Assembly: GCA_963741205.1 (NCBI GenBank)
Contig: CAVUHW010000022.1
Coordinates: forward strand, 32,001-96,000
Origin: Nitrospirota bacterium
GTDB lineage: Bacteria > Nitrospirota > UBA9217
Reading direction: 5' to 3'
DNA length: 64,000 bases
Positions within the stretch are counted from its first letter, which is position 1, and every line of letters begins with the position of its first letter. Of the stretch, positions 2,387 to 39,698 are shown piece after piece. The notes under the pieces are model-generated. The model worked only from the letters and a program-made list of their open reading frames with translations. It was not told the origin of the DNA and did not search any database. Both the position numbers and the translations under genes were made by a program.

Positions 2387-3832
2387 TTACGGAACGATAT
2401 AGCCTACTTCGCCGTCAAAACCCTTTTTGCTGACAGGCACAGTAAGATTTACGTTCTTTCGGCTTCCCGACAGATCGCCAAGGAGATAGAAGCTGAAGTC
2501 CCCGGGGTCGCCGTACTTGTCCGTGGGCAGCGTCTGCTTGCTCATGTCGAGGGGCTTTACGAGATGGGGAGTCACGATCACCACGAGTTCCGTCTCGTTT
2601 TTCTTAAAGGAGGAGCTTCTGAAACAGCGCTCCCAGGATCGGGATGTCGCCGAGGAGCGGGAATTTTGCGATGTCTTCGGTCACTTTCTCGCTTAAAAGC
2701 CCCGCTAAAGCAAAACTCTGCCCATCGGCGAGTTCGACGACCGTGGAGACGCTTCTTTCCGTAAAGGCCGGGATCACGAAGCCGTTCGCGATGATGGCGT
2801 TGGAAAAATCGAGGTCCGAGACGCGCGGCTCCACTTTCATCGAGATCTTCCCTTCACTCAGGACCGTAGGGGTGAAGCTTAGTCCCACGCCGAATTTTTT
2901 GAACGTGACGGATACCGTGCCGAGCCCGGAGGCTTCGGGAATCGGCACTTCTCCCCCGGCGTTGAAGCTGGCCGTCTGGCCGCTCAGGGCCGTAAGCGTA
3001 GGCTCGGCAAGAACGGTAAGCAGGCCGTTCTCCTTGAGGGCGTCAATAAAACCCGTCCAGGTGGCGCCGTCATGCACGAATCTGAATATTGCGTTGACGT
3101 TCTGGGAAACGGCTATTCCACCCGGAGCGCTGATATCCGAACTTCCAAATGGAAAACCCAGGGGCGGCTGCGTTTTAAGCGTGGTAAGGTTATTGAGGAG
3201 GGATACACCGAACTTGCTGCCGTCCGCCGATACTCCGTTGAAATTGATGCCGAGCCTTCTCACGGTGCTTTTCTGTATTTCGGAGACCCTCACTTCAAGC
3301 ATCACCTGCTGGACGCCGCCGACATCGAGAAGGTTGACCACCTTGCCGAAAGGCCCGGCCATGGCAAGCGCCTGCGAAAGATTTGCGGCGTTTGAGACCG
3401 TGCCCGAAAGGGTGATGGCATCATTGGAAGAGGATACCTTGATGTTCTCCTCCTGGGGGAGTATCTCATGGAGCTTCTCCTTGAGGCGGACGATGTCCGG
3501 ATAGACTTCAATGTCGAATGTGGCTAAGACGGTGTCGCCTTCCCACAGGGTCAGATTGGTCAGACCCGGCGCTTTCCCGGTAAGATATATCTGCCGGGGC
3601 GTAAGCACCATGGCGTCCGCGAAGCCGGGCGCGGCCAGGGAGACCCTCTTTACCGCGGTGGGGCTCTCGATGACGATGGATTTTCCCGACCATGAGGCTT
3701 ATCTTCTGGGGTGATGCGACATCGAGCTTGATTACAGACTCTTTCGCCGCGGCCTCATGAGCAAGGATAGCGTATGCTAAAAAAACGAATAATAACTGTT
3801 GATAAAGCCCCCCGGAATGGTCTATTCTCCAT
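2387..3832 (-). CDS. cpaC: Tad secretin CpaC/RcpA (frameshifted)
   Basis: QQVMLEVRVSE, LAEPTLTALSGQTASFNAGGEVPIP, KFPLLGDIPILGALF and VIVTPHLVKP secretin motifs; BON-like segment. Confidence 0.93.
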
Positions 3833-3836
3833 GACC

Positions 3837-4711
3837 CTATTCACTCCCTTCTTTGAATTTCACTTCATCGACTTTCTGGCCTTCGATCAACTGGACCTTT
3901 GAGTAATATTCCTTTGCAGGTACATGCGGCTCGGCAACGACCTTTTCTTCTTGCGTACTGCTTTCTTCTCCGGCGCGGGGCCCTTGCCGCTTAAAAACCT
4001 GACGAGCGACTGCACCGTGGCTCCCTTTGTGCCGATATTCTTGGTATCGCTGAAATTCCTGAGGGAGAGCTGGAGTTTCCCTTCCGCCGAGGCGAGGGCG
4101 AGCACTTCGGCCTCCTCGGGCGACACTTCGAGCGTGATCACGTCCACCTCGACGGGCTTTTCCTGCTTGCCTCTGATCTCCGTTTCCGTCCCGGTGGCGA
4201 GGACGGGGATGTTTTCGAGGACGGTCATGGTTACCGGCATGCATCGAATTTGCAGGCCTGAAGGTGGCGACGACGTCCACCCTGTTTCCCGGATGTATGA
4301 AGCCCGACACACCCTGCACCTTATCCACCTTCACGCCCATGGCCCGCTTGTTTTCGGATATCACGGCCGCAACTCCGCCTTTGGTGATGTCCGAGGGCGC
4401 CAGGCGGGATTCGAATATCGGCTCATCGGCCTTTATGGGGGTGATGACGACGCGCCCCGCAACCGTGGCTGGGTCTGTAAAGAAACCGATGTCAGGCTTC
4501 CCTTGAGGAATGGAACGGTCTTTACCATTTCCGGCTTTATGATCGTCCCCCAGTTCAGGTCAGTAACGGCCACGGCCACGTTCACGAGCTCCCCGCGCTG
4601 GCTTGCGAGCGCGACGGACCTGTCCTTGAGCCAACGGTAAACCAGAAAGCTCGTGGTGAGAGCGACCAACACGGTCAAGACGATAAGAATTATGGGTTTA
4701 TATCTTTTCAC
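3837..4711 (-). CDS. cpaB: Flp pilus assembly protein CpaB (frameshifted)
   Basis: N-terminal TM, SAF domain VAVAVTDL..G, KRAMGVKVDKVQGVSGFIHPGNRVDV, VLENIPVLA, ITLEVSPEEAE. Confidence 0.92.
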
Positions 4712-4754
4712 ATCACACCCCCGGATTAACGGATAAATAATTTCACTTTAAATG

Positions 4755-4787
4755 CGGGAGAGATGCTTATCGAAGCATCTCTCCCGA
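4755..4787 (-). terminator. Hairpin between flp and cpaB (terminator or mRNA stabiliser)
   Basis: cgggagagatgctt-atcg-aagcatctctcccg perfect stem. Confidence 0.65.
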
Positions 4788-4803
4788 AAGCTTGCAGAAG
4801 CTA

Positions 4804-5003
4804 CTAAGTTGCCCGCCACAACGTGTAGGTCAGAAATTGCTTACCAATTGCAGCCGTAAGCATAGCCGCATGACTCGCCGGCAAGAAAGCCGCTGATGAT
4901 GATGAGCCGCCATGATGACTCGCGACCGAGCACCCACTCTCACGCTCACTTCGCCCTTTTCCTCCTGCAGTTTCATCCGCATGTATCTTAACATCTCCTT
5001 CAT
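4804..5003 (-). CDS. flp: Flp type IVb pilin (frameshifted)
   Basis: RBS aaggagg, then MKEMLRYMRMKLQEEKG/EVSV(E)W followed by a hydrophobic helix; about 65 aa; first gene of the Tad operon. Confidence 0.75.
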
Positions 5004-5208
5004 ATATTTCCACCTCCTTTCGTGATAAAGATAAATTCGGCCCATGATGCCGTCTAGCTTCTCTATTTCTTATCCTGAACTTACATAAGCAGCATTTTAC
5101 TGCACTCATTCGTATGGCGATAAAGCTCTTGCAACGAGCTACCGGCATGAGCGATAAGCCATCTAAAAGATCCCCGGAATAAAGCGGGCTCTCCTCAGGG
5201 AATAGGTC

Positions 5209-14490: not shown

Positions 14491-15057
14491 AGATATGTCG
14501 AGGCTGAATATTACCAAGAAGGCGCGAAAGACAAAAAAGATCCTGATGATAGCAGGTCATGGTGCTCGCAGCGTGTCCAGCAGCGCGAAGGTGAACGATG
14601 AAGTCCTTGATCAGGTGTGATATTGCTTGCTTCCGGCATAATATTCTCCTCTCCGATTTTTAGCGCCCTAAGCGTGAAACTGTTCGGGCTTTTGCCGGAG
14701 ATGATACGCCGGAATCAGGAGAAGATCGTGCTGCGAAAGAGGATTTTGACTATGTGGAGACCGGGTCGCTTGCGACAAAGGGCTTTCGAAAATAGGTAAA
14801 GGATGACAGAAGAGCCTGCTCTACGGGCAGGGGACGAAGGCATATGGACGCGATTTTCGACACTGACGTATATCTGCTTGATTGTGGGGCGCGAGAACCC
14901 TACGATTATTCAGGACAAAACTTCCCGTGTCGCAAGCGGCTCGATGAAAAATGTCGAAAATCGGTTTTCGATAAACGTGCAGTGCTTTAACTACTTTGTA
15001 TTAAAAAAAATCCAGATGGGCATATCTGCCCACCTGGAAAAGTGTAATGATTTTAAC

Positions 15058-15085
15058 GGTTCCCAGAATATTCATTCTGAGAAAT
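15058..15085. other. dif-like recombination site A
   Basis: ggttcccagaa-tattca-ttctgagaaat (11-6-11 inverted arms). Confidence 0.6.
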
Positions 15086-15162: not shown

Positions 15163-15684
15163 CTACTTCGGAACGTCCGTCGCTTTCGATTTCACCGTGT
15201 AGTCTATGCCCACGTCGGATGCCTGTTTTTGCCTTACCACTTTAATGAATCCATATCCCAGGCCGACATGACAACTGTTGCAGCTCGCAATAACCGCGTT
15301 GTATTTCCTATCGAAGGCCTTAAAATCCTGGGCCATGATCGCCTTGTTCACCGGATCGAAGGTATTCTTGTAAAAATTTTCCCATGCAGGGTATTAAGCC
15401 GTTTTCGTGAACTTTGCAGGGTTCATAGCCGCATTCATATACTTTGACATATACGCTGCGAGACCCCAATTGCCGCCCTGGGCTGCGGAAAACATATCCT
15501 GGAAACGGTCGCCGACTTCACGCATCGGTACGGCGAATTTCGGTATCGCATTCTTTACCGCATCGATCTGCTTCTGCAAATCATCCTGCTTTGGCATTTG
15601 AATTTTCACGGCCTGGACGGCATTCATGCCGATAAACGACAACACCCCTGCCATAGCAATAAAGATGACGACTTTTCTCAGCAT
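15163..15684 (-). CDS. Periplasmic monoheme cytochrome c (helical, C-terminal CxxCH; frameshifted)
   Basis: Signal peptide MLRKVVIFIAMAG; CNSCH near the C-terminus. Confidence 0.75.
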
Positions 15685-15792
15685 AGTGGAACTCCTTTCA
15701 AAACTGATTTTAAGTTCGACTGTCCCGCGCTTCACTGCAAAACCTCAATCCTTCAACTTGTTTCATCATCACCTCCTTGTCTGAAGCAGCGT

Positions 15793-16631
15793 CTATTTTT
15801 TTTCCTCATGGGGGCCAAAGGTGTACTGATACGCAAGGTAAGCCGAGACCCGGTTATCACCATGGATGTCGCTTCCGACGGAGAAAAGCACGTGGTGGGC
15901 GTCGGTGACATTCACAATCGCACCCACATTGTAACCGAGACGGGATTTTGCGTCATCCGCATCCTTGGTCTGCGTAATAATTCTGCGCTGATCGTCAGCA
16001 GCTCGGACATTGCACGCTGCACTTGCCAGCCGAAAAACCAGTAGTCCTTGTTGCCTTCACCTGGATTTCGCCAGTAACCGCCGCCGCCGTAGGTTTGCCA
16101 CGGGCCCCAGGCCTTCTGCAGCCAGAGAGGAATAAAAATCCTCGTGTGTCCCGCGCCCAACCCCTTATCGCTGTCGCCGGTAGGCAATGTCACGATGGGG
16201 AAAGTCCCCACCATGAAGTGAGCATCCTCATCGTTTATGAAACGATACTTGATCCCCACCTCCGTGTCGCCGTAGCCGCGCTGCGTGGGCTCCCCCTCCG
16301 GCTTGTCGTATACAAACGGCGTGATAAGATGGAGCATGACATTGGGTACGACTCCATAGTTAAGCTCAAAATGCGGGGCGGTGCCGGAGGTCGCGTCCTT
16401 GTCCTTCGCGTACTGTGTGGCGACGTAAAACTCTCCATGCTTGTAATCCACGGGCTCCGGGTCGTCGGTAACAAAAGGCGGTCCGGCCCAGGTCTTGCCG
16501 ATGCCGATACCCATGACACACAAAATTGCTGCGAGGAGCGCTGCCAAGCGAGGCAGGAGCGCGGAGAACTGAATAATACTACCCTTTCCGGTCAAATATG
16601 AGATTCTACGACGGGAACAATCTATTTGCAT
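15793..16631 (-). CDS. Outer-membrane beta-barrel, putative MetA-pathway/transporter family (frameshifted)
   Basis: AGPPFVTDDPEP, ELNYG, GYGDTEVGIKYRF, LPTGD..KGLG, PLWLQK. Confidence 0.8.
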
Positions 16632-16663
16632 ATTTACTCCTTTTATTTTGAATTTATTAAGCA

Positions 16664-16691
16664 AGTTTCCAGAATACTCATTATGGGAAAT
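16664..16691. other. dif-like recombination site B
   Basis: agtttccagaa-tactca-ttatgggaaat. The right arm is 9/11 identical to the E. coli XerD arm ttatgttaaat. Confidence 0.7.
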
Positions 16692-35801: not shown

Positions 35802-35840
35802 TTTGAAAAATTCATTCTGCCCACGACAGAGGAGACAAGC

Positions 35841-36578
35841 ATGACGAACTTGCACATTTTCCCCGACAATCGGAGTTTTGTCAACGGCTCGGCGGATTTC
35901 ATCGCCGATGTTGCCGCCGGCGCCATCGCCGAGCGCGGTCGATGTACCATCGCGCTATCGGGCGGCGGAACACCGAAACCGATTTATGCGCGACTGGAGA
36001 CGGCGGAGTATCAAGACCGGATCGCGTGGGAGAAAGTGCACATCTTCTTTGGGGACGAACGCTGCGTGCCGCCCGACGATGAGCGCAGCAATTACCGCAT
36101 GGTGCGCGAAGTGTGGTTCGATCACTCACCAATTCCCGCCGAAAACGTTCATCGCATTCGTGGCGAAAACGACCCTGCGATCGAAGCCTTGCGCTATGAA
36201 CAGGACATCACCAGACTATATCGCTCGGCCCGGTTCCCGGCGTTCGATCTCATTTTGTTGGGCATGGGAGACAACGGGCATACGGCGTCACTGTTCCCCG
36301 GGACGGCCGCCTTGCGTGAAACAAAACGCTGGGTGGTGGCGCAATACGTTGAAGTGATGGCCACATGGCGGGTGACGTTCACCGCGCCGCTCATCAACGC
36401 TGCGCGCCACGTGGCGTTTCTGGCGGAAGGCGCCGGAAAAGCGCAGATGCTGTGGAACGTGCTTGAAGGGCCTTATCAACCCGACGTGTGGCCCTCGCAG
36501 TTGATCCAGCCGGCGAGCGGCGAGCTGCACTGGTTGGTGGATGCGGCGGCCGCGGTAAAAGTGAAGGCCGTCGGGTAA
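35841..36578 (+). CDS. pgl: 6-phosphogluconolactonase
   Basis: ALSGGGTP, GDERCVPPDD.RSNY, LGMGDNGHTASLFP. Confidence 0.96.
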   Translation: MTNLHIFPDNRSFVNGSADFIADVAAGAIAERGRCTIALSGGGTPKPIYARLETAEYQDRIAWEKVHIFFGDERCVPPDDERSNYRMVREVWFDHSPIPAENVHRIRGENDPAIEALRYEQDITRLYRSARFPAFDLILLGMGDNGHTASLFPGTAALRETKRWVVAQYVEVMATWRVTFTAPLINAARHVAFLAEGAGKAQMLWNVLEGPYQPDVWPSQLIQPASGELHWLVDAAAAVKVKAVG

Positions 36579-36588
36579 AGGGGTCACC

Positions 36589-37308
36589 ATGAAGCAAGCC
36601 TCGACTACTGAATCGGATCAGGAAGCTCAGTTCAAAGAAATGGCTGCGATGCGCGCGGTGCAATTCGTGCGGTCGGGGATGAAGGTAGGACTGGGCACCG
36701 GCAGCACGGCCATTTTTGCCACGCGGCGCATTGCGGAATTGTTGAAAACGGGCGAACTGAGTGACATCGTCGCCTTCGCGACCTCGAAAGCCACGGCAGA
36801 AGAAGCCGTCCGGCTCGGCATCCCCCTGCTGCCCGACGACTTGCCCGAAGATCTTGACGTGACGATCGACGGCGCCGATGAAGTGGACCCGGAAATGAAT
36901 TTGATCAAAGGCGGCGGCGGCGCGCTGCTGCGTGAGAAGATCGTGGCGCAGGTGAGCACACGCGAGATTATCGTGGTGGATGAGACGAAACCGTCGCCGC
37001 GCCTGGGGACCAATTGGCCTGTGCCCGTCGAAGTGGTTCCCTTCGGCTGGCGGGCGCAGGCGCGTTATCTCGAAGTGCTTGGGGCTCAGTATACGATTCG
37101 CAAAAATCCTTGCGGCACCCAGTTTGTCACCGATTCGGGCCACATGATTCTGGATTGTCACTTTGGTCCCATCGCCGACGCGCGTAAGCTGGCAGACGCT
37201 TTAAATTCGCGCGCGGGCATCGTCGAGCATGGCTTGTTCATCGGGATCGCCACCGATTTGATTGTCGCGGGTGCGAGCGGCGTTCAACACCGCACGCGGG
37301 AGGCTTAG
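36589..37308 (+). CDS. rpiA: Ribose-5-phosphate isomerase A
   Basis: GLGTGST, DGADEVD, IKGGGGALLREK, VEHGLF. Confidence 0.97.
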   Translation: MKQASTTESDQEAQFKEMAAMRAVQFVRSGMKVGLGTGSTAIFATRRIAELLKTGELSDIVAFATSKATAEEAVRLGIPLLPDDLPEDLDVTIDGADEVDPEMNLIKGGGGALLREKIVAQVSTREIIVVDETKPSPRLGTNWPVPVEVVPFGWRAQARYLEVLGAQYTIRKNPCGTQFVTDSGHMILDCHFGPIADARKLADALNSRAGIVEHGLFIGIATDLIVAGASGVQHRTREA

Positions 37309-37312
37309 GACG

Positions 37313-37492
37313 ATGTCCCTACCCAAAATTGTTCCCTCTATTCTCGCCGACGGTTTTTTGAAACTGCTCGAGCAGGTGCAGGCGGAAGAGTGCGGCGGCG
37401 CGGATCGCTTTCAGGTTGATGTGATGGACGGCGTGTTCGCGCCGAATATCAGTTTCGGGTTTCCCCTCATCGAAGCGATACGCCACGCCACG
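37313..37492 (+). pseudogene. rpe: Ribulose-phosphate 3-epimerase, N-terminal fragment
   Basis: KIVPSIL...QVDVMDGVFAPNISFG; truncated after about 60 aa. Confidence 0.85.
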
Positions 37493-37705
37493 TACCGAGG
37501 ACGATCTCGGGATCCGCGGGCTTGAGAAGCAGGGCCTGAAGAAATGGCAAAGGCGCGTCGAGGAGGTCACGGAGCGATTCGTCTCGGCCCTCCTCCTCGA
37601 CGATGCCGTTCTCGGCGGCGGGAACGCCAGGAAGTTGACGAGTCTGCCGTAAGGGATGCCGGAGGGTAGACAACGCCAACGCGTTCCTGGGAGGGTTTAG
37701 GCTCA
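37487..37705 (+). pseudogene. Polyphosphate glucokinase/ROK-family C-terminal fragment
   Basis: ATY(E)DDLGIRGLEKQGLKKWQRRV...VLGGGNARKL..LP*GCRRVDNANAFLGGFRL, with an internal TAA. Confidence 0.75.
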
Positions 37706-37855
37706 GATATGCCTGTTGGAAGTGGGCGACTAGCTACAATTAGTAATGCACCGCAAACATCAACGCTACATATGGTTCTCTGTTTGCTTCCTGAATTAAA
37801 AAAGAAATTCCAGATGGGTGTCTATGCCCACCTGGAAAAGTGTAATGATTTTAAT

Positions 37856-37883
37856 AGTTCCAAAAATACTCATTCTGAGAACT
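37856..37883. other. dif-like recombination site C
   Basis: agttccaaaaa-tactca-ttctgagaact, preceded by the same hairpin-bearing flank as site A. Confidence 0.6.
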
Positions 37884-37948
37884 CGTGTCTACAAAAAGGG
37901 CTGGACGACCAGCCCGTCATGCCGTTTGACTATAGACCTGAACTCCGA

Positions 37949-39076
37949 TTAACCGGCTGCAGTATCACTTGCCGCTTTCTGTTCCGCCTCCCCGGAATGC
38001 GCTTCAGATTCAATTTCAACTTCTGATTTAATCGTCAAAGCGAGGACCGTGCCATCGGCCTGAAGCGTCCCTTCAACCTCAAGCGTTGCGTTCGCGGCCA
38101 CCATGCCGCTCGACGGCGCTGTACCTCCCAGAAATACCGTTGCACTGCTGACTTTTACCGTCACCGTCCCGTTCGGCCCGTTCATCGTGAAGGAACCGTC
38201 CGCAGCGATAGCTCCAACGGCAATGCCCTGGATACTGACGTTATCTTCCACTTCGACACCTTCGCCAACGCCATGGTTGCCCTTATTGCCCTCAATGCGC
38301 GTCGCGGTAAGGGTATTCGTGTTCGCGTCCAGGGTCCCTTTTACTTCAACATCGGCCCCGACAATGAGATCTGCCGTGGTCAGATTGGGCATGCTCGTTG
38401 TTGCGGTCGTTACCACCGCAGTTGTCCCAATAGTGAAGCCGGTCCCTGTCACCGACGCTATTTTGCCGTGAATCTCGGCCTTGCCGCTTGCACCGAAATC
38501 GTCCTTCTGGACTGAAATGCGTGTCGCATGAAAAACGCCTGAGTTATCCATGCGGCCGCTGACCTCAATTTCGGGATGCGTCGTGCCGGTGAGCTTGGTT
38601 TGCAGCCCGGTCAGCGTCATGGGATTCCCTTTGTCTTCAAATGACGTGGTTGCACTCGTGACAACCTCATGTCCCATAATCGTGAGCGTACCAGTGGTGC
38701 CGCTTACGACAACATTTGCCGCGGGTCCCCGAAGTTCCGGCTGGAACTCAATGGACTCGAATTCACCCTTTTTCGTGGTTGCGTCGACAGTTCCTTTGAC
38801 CGTGACGATCATCCCGATCTTGAGGTCAGTTTGCACATGAGCTGTATCGTCGAATTTGAATGTAACGGATGCATCGGGTGCATCAGCTTTTTTCGAAAAT
38901 TCGACACCGTTGACGAATACGCTGCCGAAACCTGTGATGACGCCTGTGGTTACTTGCGTCTTTGCAGCCGTAACGGCCGTGCCGCTGTCGCTGCTTGTAC
39001 CGTGACACCCAATAAAGGGCAGCGTCATGGTCAGCAGTACGGTGAGAAACATGCTTCTTCTGAATTTAGCGTTCAT
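37949..39076 (-). CDS. DUF5666 repeat lipoprotein
   Basis: Lipobox FIGC; GVITGFGSVFVNGVEF; four repeats ending V.V.G......A..I. Confidence 0.85.
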   Translation of the reverse strand: MNAKFRRSMFLTVLLTMTLPFIGCHGTSSDSGTAVTAAKTQVTTGVITGFGSVFVNGVEFSKKADAPDASVTFKFDDTAHVQTDLKIGMIVTVKGTVDATTKKGEFESIEFQPELRGPAANVVVSGTTGTLTIMGHEVVTSATTSFEDKGNPMTLTGLQTKLTGTTHPEIEVSGRMDNSGVFHATRISVQKDDFGASGKAEIHGKIASVTGTGFTIGTTAVVTTATTSMPNLTTADLIVGADVEVKGTLDANTNTLTATRIEGNKGNHGVGEGVEVEDNVSIQGIAVGAIAADGSFTMNGPNGTVTVKVSSATVFLGGTAPSSGMVAANATLEVEGTLQADGTVLALTIKSEVEIESEAHSGEAEQKAASDTAAG

Positions 39077-39698
39077 GATTGATTCCTCCTGTTTTTCTAT
39101 TTTAATTAAACATTAGACGAACCACCGGTTAAAAGGTTACAGCGAAAAATGTTTCAGGAATACTTCCTGAAAGTCACACTTGCCCATATCGACCCAGCAT
39201 GCATGTTTTTTGCTTTATTATGTTGAAGTTGTTGAAGTTGCTATCCTTGGCAACACGCGTAAGGTTGCAAACCGTATTCTTCAGCACTTCGCGTAAAATA
39301 ACCCATCGACATAACCTCATCAACATCGTTGACAACTAAGAGCCTCAGGCATATATTCGAGCATAAGTTAGTGAGTGCTTTGGTAATATTTGAATCCCTT
39401 AAAGTACTTATTCAGGAATGTTGAGCACGGGGTCTGCTCAATACATGGTAGATGGGCATAGTTATTGCTAGACTGGTAAACACCGAAAAAGAACTATCGA
39501 ACACTGCAGGTTCCAGGAGGACCGCTCAGAAGGCGGAGACGTTGAGGAATATAAGATCTAAACTCGTTAGCTGCAAGACCTGACCATCAAGCAAATATAA
39601 ACAGTATAGATCTGACCCTCAGGTCTTTAAGGTAAGAGGGGCCGATACTTCCGCGTCTCTGTGCCTCGGCGGTGAATAACTATTATGTGGGGGCTATT

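Follow-up and report, generated by a model that had tools for sequence, protein, structure and literature searches.

A candidate small RNA gene behind a palindromic promoter-like box in an uncultured Nitrospirota lineage, with tyrosine recombinase genes beside about half of its copies

The window, by which we mean the whole 64,000-nucleotide stretch of Nitrospirota DNA analysed here, contains two copies of a short repeat, at sites A and C (Table 1). Both are best read on the minus strand, on which each follows the end of an envelope-type gene: a DUF5666 lipoprotein gene closed by its own terminator at site C, and an operon for a barrel protein and a weakly cytochrome c'-like protein at site A. 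Each copy consists of a palindromic box, some 20 conserved bases and a hairpin followed by a run of T residues; behind site A there is in addition a region of repeated motifs that leads into the remnant of a tyrosine recombinase gene.

An earlier, sequence-only reading had described 15001-15085 and 37796-37883 as homologous, and so they are: BLAST aligns them at 86% identity over 81 bases, and the 30 identical bases that it had listed (tgcccacctggaaaagtgtaatgattttaa, at 15027-15056 and 37825-37854) are present at both sites, far beyond what chance would give two sites in 64 kb. Its hairpin is equally real, with arms of 12 nt at A (15011-15022/15027-15038) and of 11 nt at C (37808-37818/37827-37837), and minus-strand genes do end to the right of both sites, 66 bases from 37883 (ORF end at 37949) and 78 bases from 15085 (ORF end at 15163). 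The 11-6-11 palindrome that it saw at both sites is at A a clean 10-4-10 (15060-15069/15074-15083); at C it is weaker, 8/10 by eye, and went unreported by the palindrome search. The degraded DNA said to lie to the left of the sites is there in part: at C the rpe gene is truncated (56 of 198 Pfam positions, with an internal deletion compared with a relative) and at A a tyrosine recombinase gene is truncated and frameshifted, but the supposed ASCH remnant at A has no Pfam match. The pgl-rpiA-rpe segment to which the truncated gene belongs (window 35818-37704) shows ~83% DNA identity to MAGs labelled Eubacteriales, Syntrophobacterales and Aminicenantes, and its more distant protein matches carry the labels Anaerolineae and Acidobacteria; this mixture could reflect either transfer or unreliable labels.

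Table 1. Features at sites A and C (window coordinates) and the two further copies of the element in the same assembly.
Feature	Position	Strand	Basis or remark
Tyrosine recombinase remnant, first ~50 codons	14492..14639	-	ATG at 14639, frameshift; similarity ends near 14492
Conserved stretch behind site A in which TGTCGMAARNCG-like motifs recur	14765..15002	-	
Inverted 11-mers in this region	14928-14938 and 14765-14777		157 bases apart
Further motif in this region	14849-14861		
Promoter-like GCGACA-17-AATAAT in this region	14933->14905	-	
Palindrome in this region	14953-14972		
Site A, whole copy	15001-15085	-	BLAST, 86% identity over 81 bases; element read on minus strand
Short-RNA terminator, site A	15003..15038	-	12-pair stem, 4-nt loop, T8 (TTTTTTTT)
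Conserved unpaired 5' part of short RNA, site A	15039..15058	-	alignment, centroid fold
Box A (TTCTCAGAATGAATATTCTGGGAAC)	15059..15083	-	pattern and palindrome search
Box-driven two-gene operon: Phenol_MetA_deg-like barrel and weak cytochrome c'-like CXXCH protein	15163..16637	-	upstream of site A
Box B, before the outer-membrane-barrel gene	16665..16689	-	ribosome-binding site and ATG within ~30 bases
Site C, whole copy	37796-37883	-	BLAST query; element read on minus strand
Short-RNA terminator, site C (hairpin of the sequence-only reading)	37798..37837	-	11-pair stem, 8-nt loop, then TTTCTTTTTT
Conserved unpaired 5' part of short RNA, site C (UAUUAAAAUCAUUACACUUU)	37837..37856	-	alignments; unpaired in centroid fold
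Box C (TTCTCAGAATGAGTATTTTTGGAAC), palindromic, promoter/operator-like (11-6-11 site of the sequence-only reading)	37857..37881	-	pattern search
Separate terminator of upstream DUF5666 gene (GGGCTGGTCGTCCAGCCC and T-run)	37893..37915 (called 37915->37898)	-	terminator scan
DUF5666 lipoprotein gene, 375 aa	37949..39076	-	duplicated with RNA gene on contig C5
Degenerate box-like sequence (CAGGAAGTATTCCTGAAAC)	39151..39169	-	homology to C5 copy starts there
C5 copy	C5:3650-3738		BLAST of own assembly
C6 copy	C6:15458-15543		BLAST of own assembly

A BLAST search with the 88-mer of site C against the window's own assembly (50 contigs, 4.27 Mb, 84% complete, 4.9% contamination) finds four full copies, which form two pairs. 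Site C and the copy on contig C5 have 1460 bases in common at 86% identity, comprising the DUF5666 lipoprotein gene and the element, while site A and the copy on contig C6 have 1907 bases in common at 89% identity, comprising the two-gene operon, the element and 230 more bases. Between the two pairs the common DNA amounts to only 90-104 bases, which makes the element a module that unrelated genes have in common. Both duplicated segments start at or next to a box and end 50-230 bases past the RNA gene, with no second site at their end; two strains binned together could be the source of the duplicates. The DUF5666 duplicate (C5 ~3750-5030, minus strand) has ATT in place of ATG, an in-frame TAA and beside it an RNA copy with an altered 5' part, and it looks like a decaying copy. 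In the other pair, the cytochrome c'-like CXXCH gene (15163-15735, minus strand) is broken in the window by TAA at a codon that reads GAA on C6, and the barrel gene (15912-16637, minus strand) and its C6 counterpart (C6:14300-15400) differ by single-base indels, one per copy; both barrel-gene copies may be broken or contain assembly errors.

With respect to the box, its anatomy is that of a promoter-like sequence overlaid by a palindrome. At site C the promoter scan calls TAGACA-17-TATTTT (37891->37863, minus strand, 9/12 hexamer matches); at site A the same scan calls no promoter, the -35 part being poor there (AAATCT). We searched the 64 genomes of the family with a 21-base pattern, allowing at most 2 mismatches, and found 63 matches in 22 of them, against none in all 64 for the reversed control. 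From the fetched loci 65 forward-pointing instances were kept, the consensus of which is TAGACA, 17 bases, TATTCT and then GGGAAC, with a near-perfect palindrome, CYCAGAAT-GAGT-ATTCTGGG, lying over the spacer and the -10 hexamer and reaching into the bases beyond. The conserved motif reaches ~40 positions in these 65 instances, past the bases searched for, with T-rich/TAGACA sequence upstream and AC downstream. Changes in the left arm of the palindrome are, by eye, not accompanied by compensating changes in the right arm, and it is therefore a protein site on DNA and not an RNA helix. The upstream genes close with their own terminators directly before the box, leaving no room for another promoter.

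What the box points towards is mostly the start of a gene. A ribosome-binding site and start codon lie 0-40 bases downstream of 37 of the 65 boxes, as opposed to 5 of 65 on the opposite strand, and the spacing from box to start is nearly fixed (median 18; 34 of the 37 at 13-40 bases). Another 12 boxes lead by pattern into the small RNA, three more into diverged or decayed RNA copies, and four into a second kind of short sequence beginning GAATCATTTC; the remainder are less clear. The latter, which starts (C)GAATCATTTC and has no hairpin of the R1 type (see below), was seen at L039, L075, L077 and L078 (genomes G064, G065 and G066) and at L098 (G024); it may be a sister RNA sharing the AAUCAUU start.

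There are 9 box sites in the window's own genome, three of them in the window. The boxes also tend to cluster, in 9 same-orientation groups with spacings from 75 bases to 4.3 kb in 8 of the 22 box-positive genomes (for example G068:C13:270761/273495/276559, G066:C7:153385/153953, and 15059 with 16665 in the window), which by our own estimate is far more than chance would give for 5-8 sites per 4 Mb. A single pair in opposite orientation was found, in G011.

The genes driven by the box make up a stress-type regulon. In the window's own genome the box leads four protein genes or operons: the barrel operon; a NosL gene with a Sco-like gene (assigned by reading the sequence); a cytidylate-kinase-like gene; and a gene without known family. 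In the relatives it precedes genes for Usp, STAS, PilZ, a response regulator with PilZ, rhodanese, Ysc84 and FkbM methyltransferase, as well as DUF3047, DUF6982, a cupredoxin-like protein, patatin, zinc-ribbon proteins, a rubredoxin-like peptide and several lipoproteins. A sigma-B-like partner-switching operon was considered and rejected, the box-led STAS gene being followed by a PilZ protein and not by an anti-sigma kinase and a sigma factor.

On the minus strand of both A and C the terminator scan calls the hairpin behind the box an intrinsic (Rho-independent) terminator, a class defined by a stem rich in GC, a loop 3-8 bases long and a T-run that starts no more than 2 bases after the stem. 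The ~20 conserved bases between box and hairpin (..AAAUCAUUACACUUU..) remain unpaired in the folds. The computed folds are stronger on the minus than on the plus strand, at site A (-33.4 kcal/mol, z -5.1, versus -27.4, z -3.3) as well as at site C (-28.4 kcal/mol, z -2.5, versus -21.2, z -0.5). On the minus strand the C6 copy folds at -40.2 kcal/mol (z -5.4) and the C5 copy at -19.2 kcal/mol (z -0.1), the latter no better than shuffles. Among 16 aligned copies, 20 of the 176 stem cells are G.U, which are mismatches on the other strand, and at one stem position the commonest pair, G.U, occurs in 10 copies, against 4 with A-U and 2 with G-C; taken together, these cells and this distribution of pairs fit a stem that is read on the minus strand only. 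Pairing holds in 93.8% of the 176 cells, a level that 110 of 500 shuffles also attained, and covariation in the stem does not rise above shuffled controls (only two pairs differ in both partners, and 94 of 500 shuffles scored at least as high), the sequences being too alike.

A covariance model, R1, built from 14 copies finds 17 full-length places (at least 65 bits) in 11 of the 64 genomes, spread over five genera, and a metagenome scan adds the element on 5 contigs, which represent 4 distinct loci. Rfam holds no family for the element, for the region behind it or for three related loci, the matches being sub-threshold and of the chance kind. The motif string had no match in the literature text searched, and a word search over titles and the openings of abstracts brought up nothing relevant in those parts. 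Small shares of the searched stretch are present in 8 RNA runs, in four of which the contigs lay on the body of the DUF5666 gene only; these contigs (38166-39088 and parts of it, 90-99% likeness, from four sediment or soil libraries) derive from relatives rather than from this strain.

Behind the RNA gene, a conserved region of ~330 bases with repeated motifs is found in 11 of the 21 copies for which the downstream DNA is readable: at site A, on C6, in G022 (two copies), G003, G069 and G061, at three metagenome loci and, in a decayed version, in G004. Neither the region nor a recombinase is present at site C, on C5, in G065 (two copies), G068, G076, G016 and G002 (two copies) or at one metagenome locus. 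The region comprises a palindrome (GTCGAAAA-4-TTTTCGAC), about six TGTCGMAARNCG-like motifs in both orientations, a pair of inverted 11-mers and a promoter-like GCGACA-17-AATAAT located ~260 bases upstream of the integrase start, and it ends at the start of the tyrosine recombinase gene on the same strand. All ten regions for which this was compared are in the same orientation. Homology between C6 and every other region breaks off precisely at the second inverted 11-mer (TGTCGCAATCG in C6; C6 ~15779; window 14765-14777), so that this motif behaves as a breakpoint.

The recombinase gene, or a remnant of it, is present at 9 of the 21 copies, in all nine co-directional with the RNA gene and the region. 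It is intact in three places, G003, G069 and the metagenome locus L210, and decayed elsewhere, with fragments in both copies of G022, in G061, at L206 and at site A (where the remnant is too short for a Pfam search); at L208 the stored DNA ends. The G069 and G003 proteins consist of a Phage_integrase domain (PF00589) and a SAM-like N-terminus, and that of L210 aligns over 341 residues. A search for the integrase family in the family genomes gave 2 intact members, 3 fragments, 1 member cut at a contig end and 4 distant paralogues (27-29% identity), and every member with readable upstream DNA lies behind the RNA gene, with the exception of one C-terminal fragment (G056). G003 and G069, which belong to different genera, share an RT-Cas1 region, a gene of 290 aa and the whole module; within the module the homology sets in at the box and breaks off precisely at the stop codon of the integrase gene. 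In G069 the RT-Cas1 fusion gene (1199 aa, L193:3491-7090, minus strand) lies just upstream of the RNA-integrase module, and the homologous stretch of G003 (L195:2-2464, minus strand, 71% identity) is probably the same gene. A link to CRISPR was dropped: no repeat array was found in the 20 kb of G069 that were searched, and Cas1 is absent from the genome of the window. Directly behind the G069 integrase stand the housekeeping genes ymdB, rny and mgsA. G070 and G071 carry the cytochrome-like operon with no accompanying RNA gene; both genomes are too distant to fix insertion borders.

The sequence-only reading had taken the palindrome for a dif-like recombination core and the hairpin for its accessory. 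This did not hold: the box recurs 63 times in 22 of 64 genomes, always pointing towards a downstream gene or RNA, and the hairpin is a terminator on the minus strand. What is directly observed at the element is its anatomy, its conservation, the asymmetry between its strands and a box common to protein genes with a fixed spacing to the start codon, and we think it probable, on the sequence evidence assembled here, that it is a small RNA gene of the stress-type regulon, made up of the promoter/operator box and the terminator hairpin and read from the minus strand. According to this proposal a sigma-70-type promoter would be overlaid by the palindrome, to which a dimeric repressor of the regulon would most likely bind, although an alternative sigma factor at the box is also conceivable. 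Transcription would start just after GGGAAC, run through the ~20 conserved unpaired bases and stop at the GC hairpin and its U-run, yielding an RNA of roughly 55-60 nt. Such an RNA may act in trans by base pairing, with its 5' part as the seed, as a regulon-embedded regulator with several copies per genome. With respect to possible targets, complementary runs of at least 11 bases in the genome number 35 against ~30 expected by our own estimate, which is roughly chance, and pairing between the RNA and the integrase leader, computed for three genomes, is no better than for shuffles.

Regulon-embedded small RNAs with a 5' seed are familiar from the Proteobacteria, in the sigma-E-dependent RybB and MicA and in the multi-copy, Fur-controlled RyhB and PrrF. 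Like these, the present element would yield a short RNA from a (predicted) promoter of its own regulon; the 5' segment of that RNA is conserved and, in the folds, unpaired, a Rho-independent terminator closes the unit, and a genome may have several copies, which lie behind genes of the regulon. It differs from them in belonging to another phylum, in lacking any sequence relation and in having half of its copies tied to an integrase. The tie to the integrase speaks against the small RNA reading, as a plain regulatory RNA does not explain it; further points on that side are the poor -35 part at site A, the C5 copy that folds like its shuffles, the stem covariation at the level of its controls and the chance-level complementarity.

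One alternative makes the RNA gene, or its terminator hairpin, the junction between the chromosome and a mobile element that carries an integrase, a role in which tRNA and tmRNA genes are known, or has it move about as an end of such an element; the arm-type sites and the promoter of the integrase would then lie in the region that follows. We regard this as rather unlikely, while noting that it is compatible with a small RNA gene. In the P4-like layout of tRNA/tmRNA-type integration, an RNA gene is followed by arm repeats, an integrase promoter and the integrase gene, and the order found here is much the same: the small RNA gene has a symmetric stem, repeated motifs of 12 bases stand directly behind it in both orientations, and next come a promoter-like site and a tyrosine recombinase gene read in the same direction. 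The frequency of the association (region in 11 and recombinase gene or remnant in 9 of 21 copies, on the same strand), the near-exclusive position of this integrase family behind the RNA gene (the G056 fragment apart) and the decay of most of its members, which is usual for integrases of mobile elements, all favour a junction, as do the half-dozen motifs in both orientations, the flanking genes that vary between genomes, the G003/G069 homology that stops at the integrase stop codon, the C6 homology that stops at an inverted 11-mer, and the truncated genes that adjoin both sites (the integrase remnant at A, rpe at C). The RNA is, however, neither a tRNA nor a tmRNA; the integrase is intact in only three places; neither cargo nor a second attachment site was found, a second, partial copy of the RNA gene being absent from the 64-kb window (searched with filters off) and from ~30 kb downstream in G069, where the integrase gives way directly to housekeeping genes. 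Moreover, 10 of the 21 copies, site C included, have neither region nor integrase, the box pattern has no match in viral contigs, the regions are all in one orientation, and no single locus was seen to vary by excision or occupancy. The earlier idea that the repeat marks acquisition boundaries fares differently at the two sites: site A has the motif region and a recombinase remnant, with relatives that are intact in the same place, but site C has neither. In its broader form, with the element as a mark of recombination and of decaying genes, the idea has partial support, at site C only by way of the truncated rpe. The neighbourhood of a tyrosine recombinase, which the sequence-only reading had proposed to look for along with that of an HUH transposase, exists, as a gene or a remnant, at nine copies; the 7 Phage_integrase and 3 Y1 transposase matches in the window's own genome are none of them on C22, C5 or C6, the contigs that bear copies.

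The same co-directional arrangement of RNA gene, region and integrase in all nine linked copies, together with the use of the box as a promoter before many genes, could instead indicate a leader or attenuator, in which transcription from the stress box mostly stops at the hairpin and read-through feeds the downstream DNA, the integrase included. This we consider improbable: the region has its own promoter-like site before the integrase, about half of the copies are followed by unrelated or opposite-strand DNA, and the sequence of the 5' segment is conserved even where no integrase lies downstream. It is also scarcely to be expected that a miniature transposable element or the end of an IS has spread the repeat between genes by transposition. 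A short repeat common to unrelated loci, with intergenic copies behind terminators, might suggest as much, but the search turned up the two internal palindromes and no inverted repeats at the ends, and by eye no direct repeats flank the unit; the genome has only 4 copies, which make up two pairs, and in each pair 1.4-1.9 kb of neighbouring genes was duplicated along with the repeat. Its 5' part, moreover, is the box also found before protein genes, and no Y1 transposase is encoded on the same contigs.

As for a site of the dif/Xer type, whether for the resolution of chromosome dimers or as the border of a Xer-mobilised module, that interpretation is close to refuted. A replicon has a single dif site, located at its terminus, where the GC skew reverses; IMEX elements and pdif modules exploit the Xer system and are bracketed by pairs of dif-like sites. 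The box does resemble all three in being an imperfect palindrome of ~28 bases, which can be parsed as 9-6-9 or 11-6-11 and would suit a tyrosine recombinase core. Unlike them, it is present in many copies (9 in this genome), occupies a promoter position with a fixed orientation and spacing to start codons, and has arms more symmetric than those of dif; the GC skew shows no switch in the window, and the linked integrase, mostly decayed, is not the essential Xer. In contrast to IMEX and pdif, the boxes stand in tandem and in the same orientation, each before a gene or RNA, and do not bracket modules as inverted or direct pairs.

There is finally a very improbable interpretation in which box, RNA, region and integrase form a stress-controlled recombination module, with the box palindrome (as 9-6-9) or the hairpin as the core site and the tandem box-led genes as cassettes that are gathered or shuffled. 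Its attraction is that it would tie together the 9 box clusters in 8 of 22 genomes, the duplications that start at boxes and the homology that runs from box to integrase stop; if true, it would amount to integron-like gene capture in which the recombination site doubles as the promoter of a regulon. No recombination junction was seen in any genome comparison. In integrons proper, the attC/attI sites have RYYYAAC/GTTRRRY cores and the IntI-type integrase is divergent from the cassettes, whereas the box ends in TGGGAAC/GTTCCCA, which does not fit this consensus, and the integrase lies downstream and is co-directional. A likeness may also be seen to the fimS type of switch, in which an invertible promoter lies beside a tyrosine recombinase gene: here a promoter-like site just ahead of the recombinase gene lies between two inverted 11-mers with 157 bases from one to the other, but in the assembled sequences, to which this comparison applies, 10 of 10 regions have one orientation.

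Returning to the small RNA gene, the reading that we prefer, the 40-base promoter/operator box and the small RNA family provide annotation marks in an uncultured lineage without described regulons, and the box defines a stress-type regulon across at least seven genera. The case also illustrates that a near-perfect palindrome beside a hairpin can mimic dif and yet be a promoter and a terminator on the other strand. Finally, the pairing of a small RNA gene with a decaying recombinase offers a place to ask whether small RNA genes other than those of tRNA and tmRNA serve as landing sites, and whether an integrase may sit under the control of a stress regulon.
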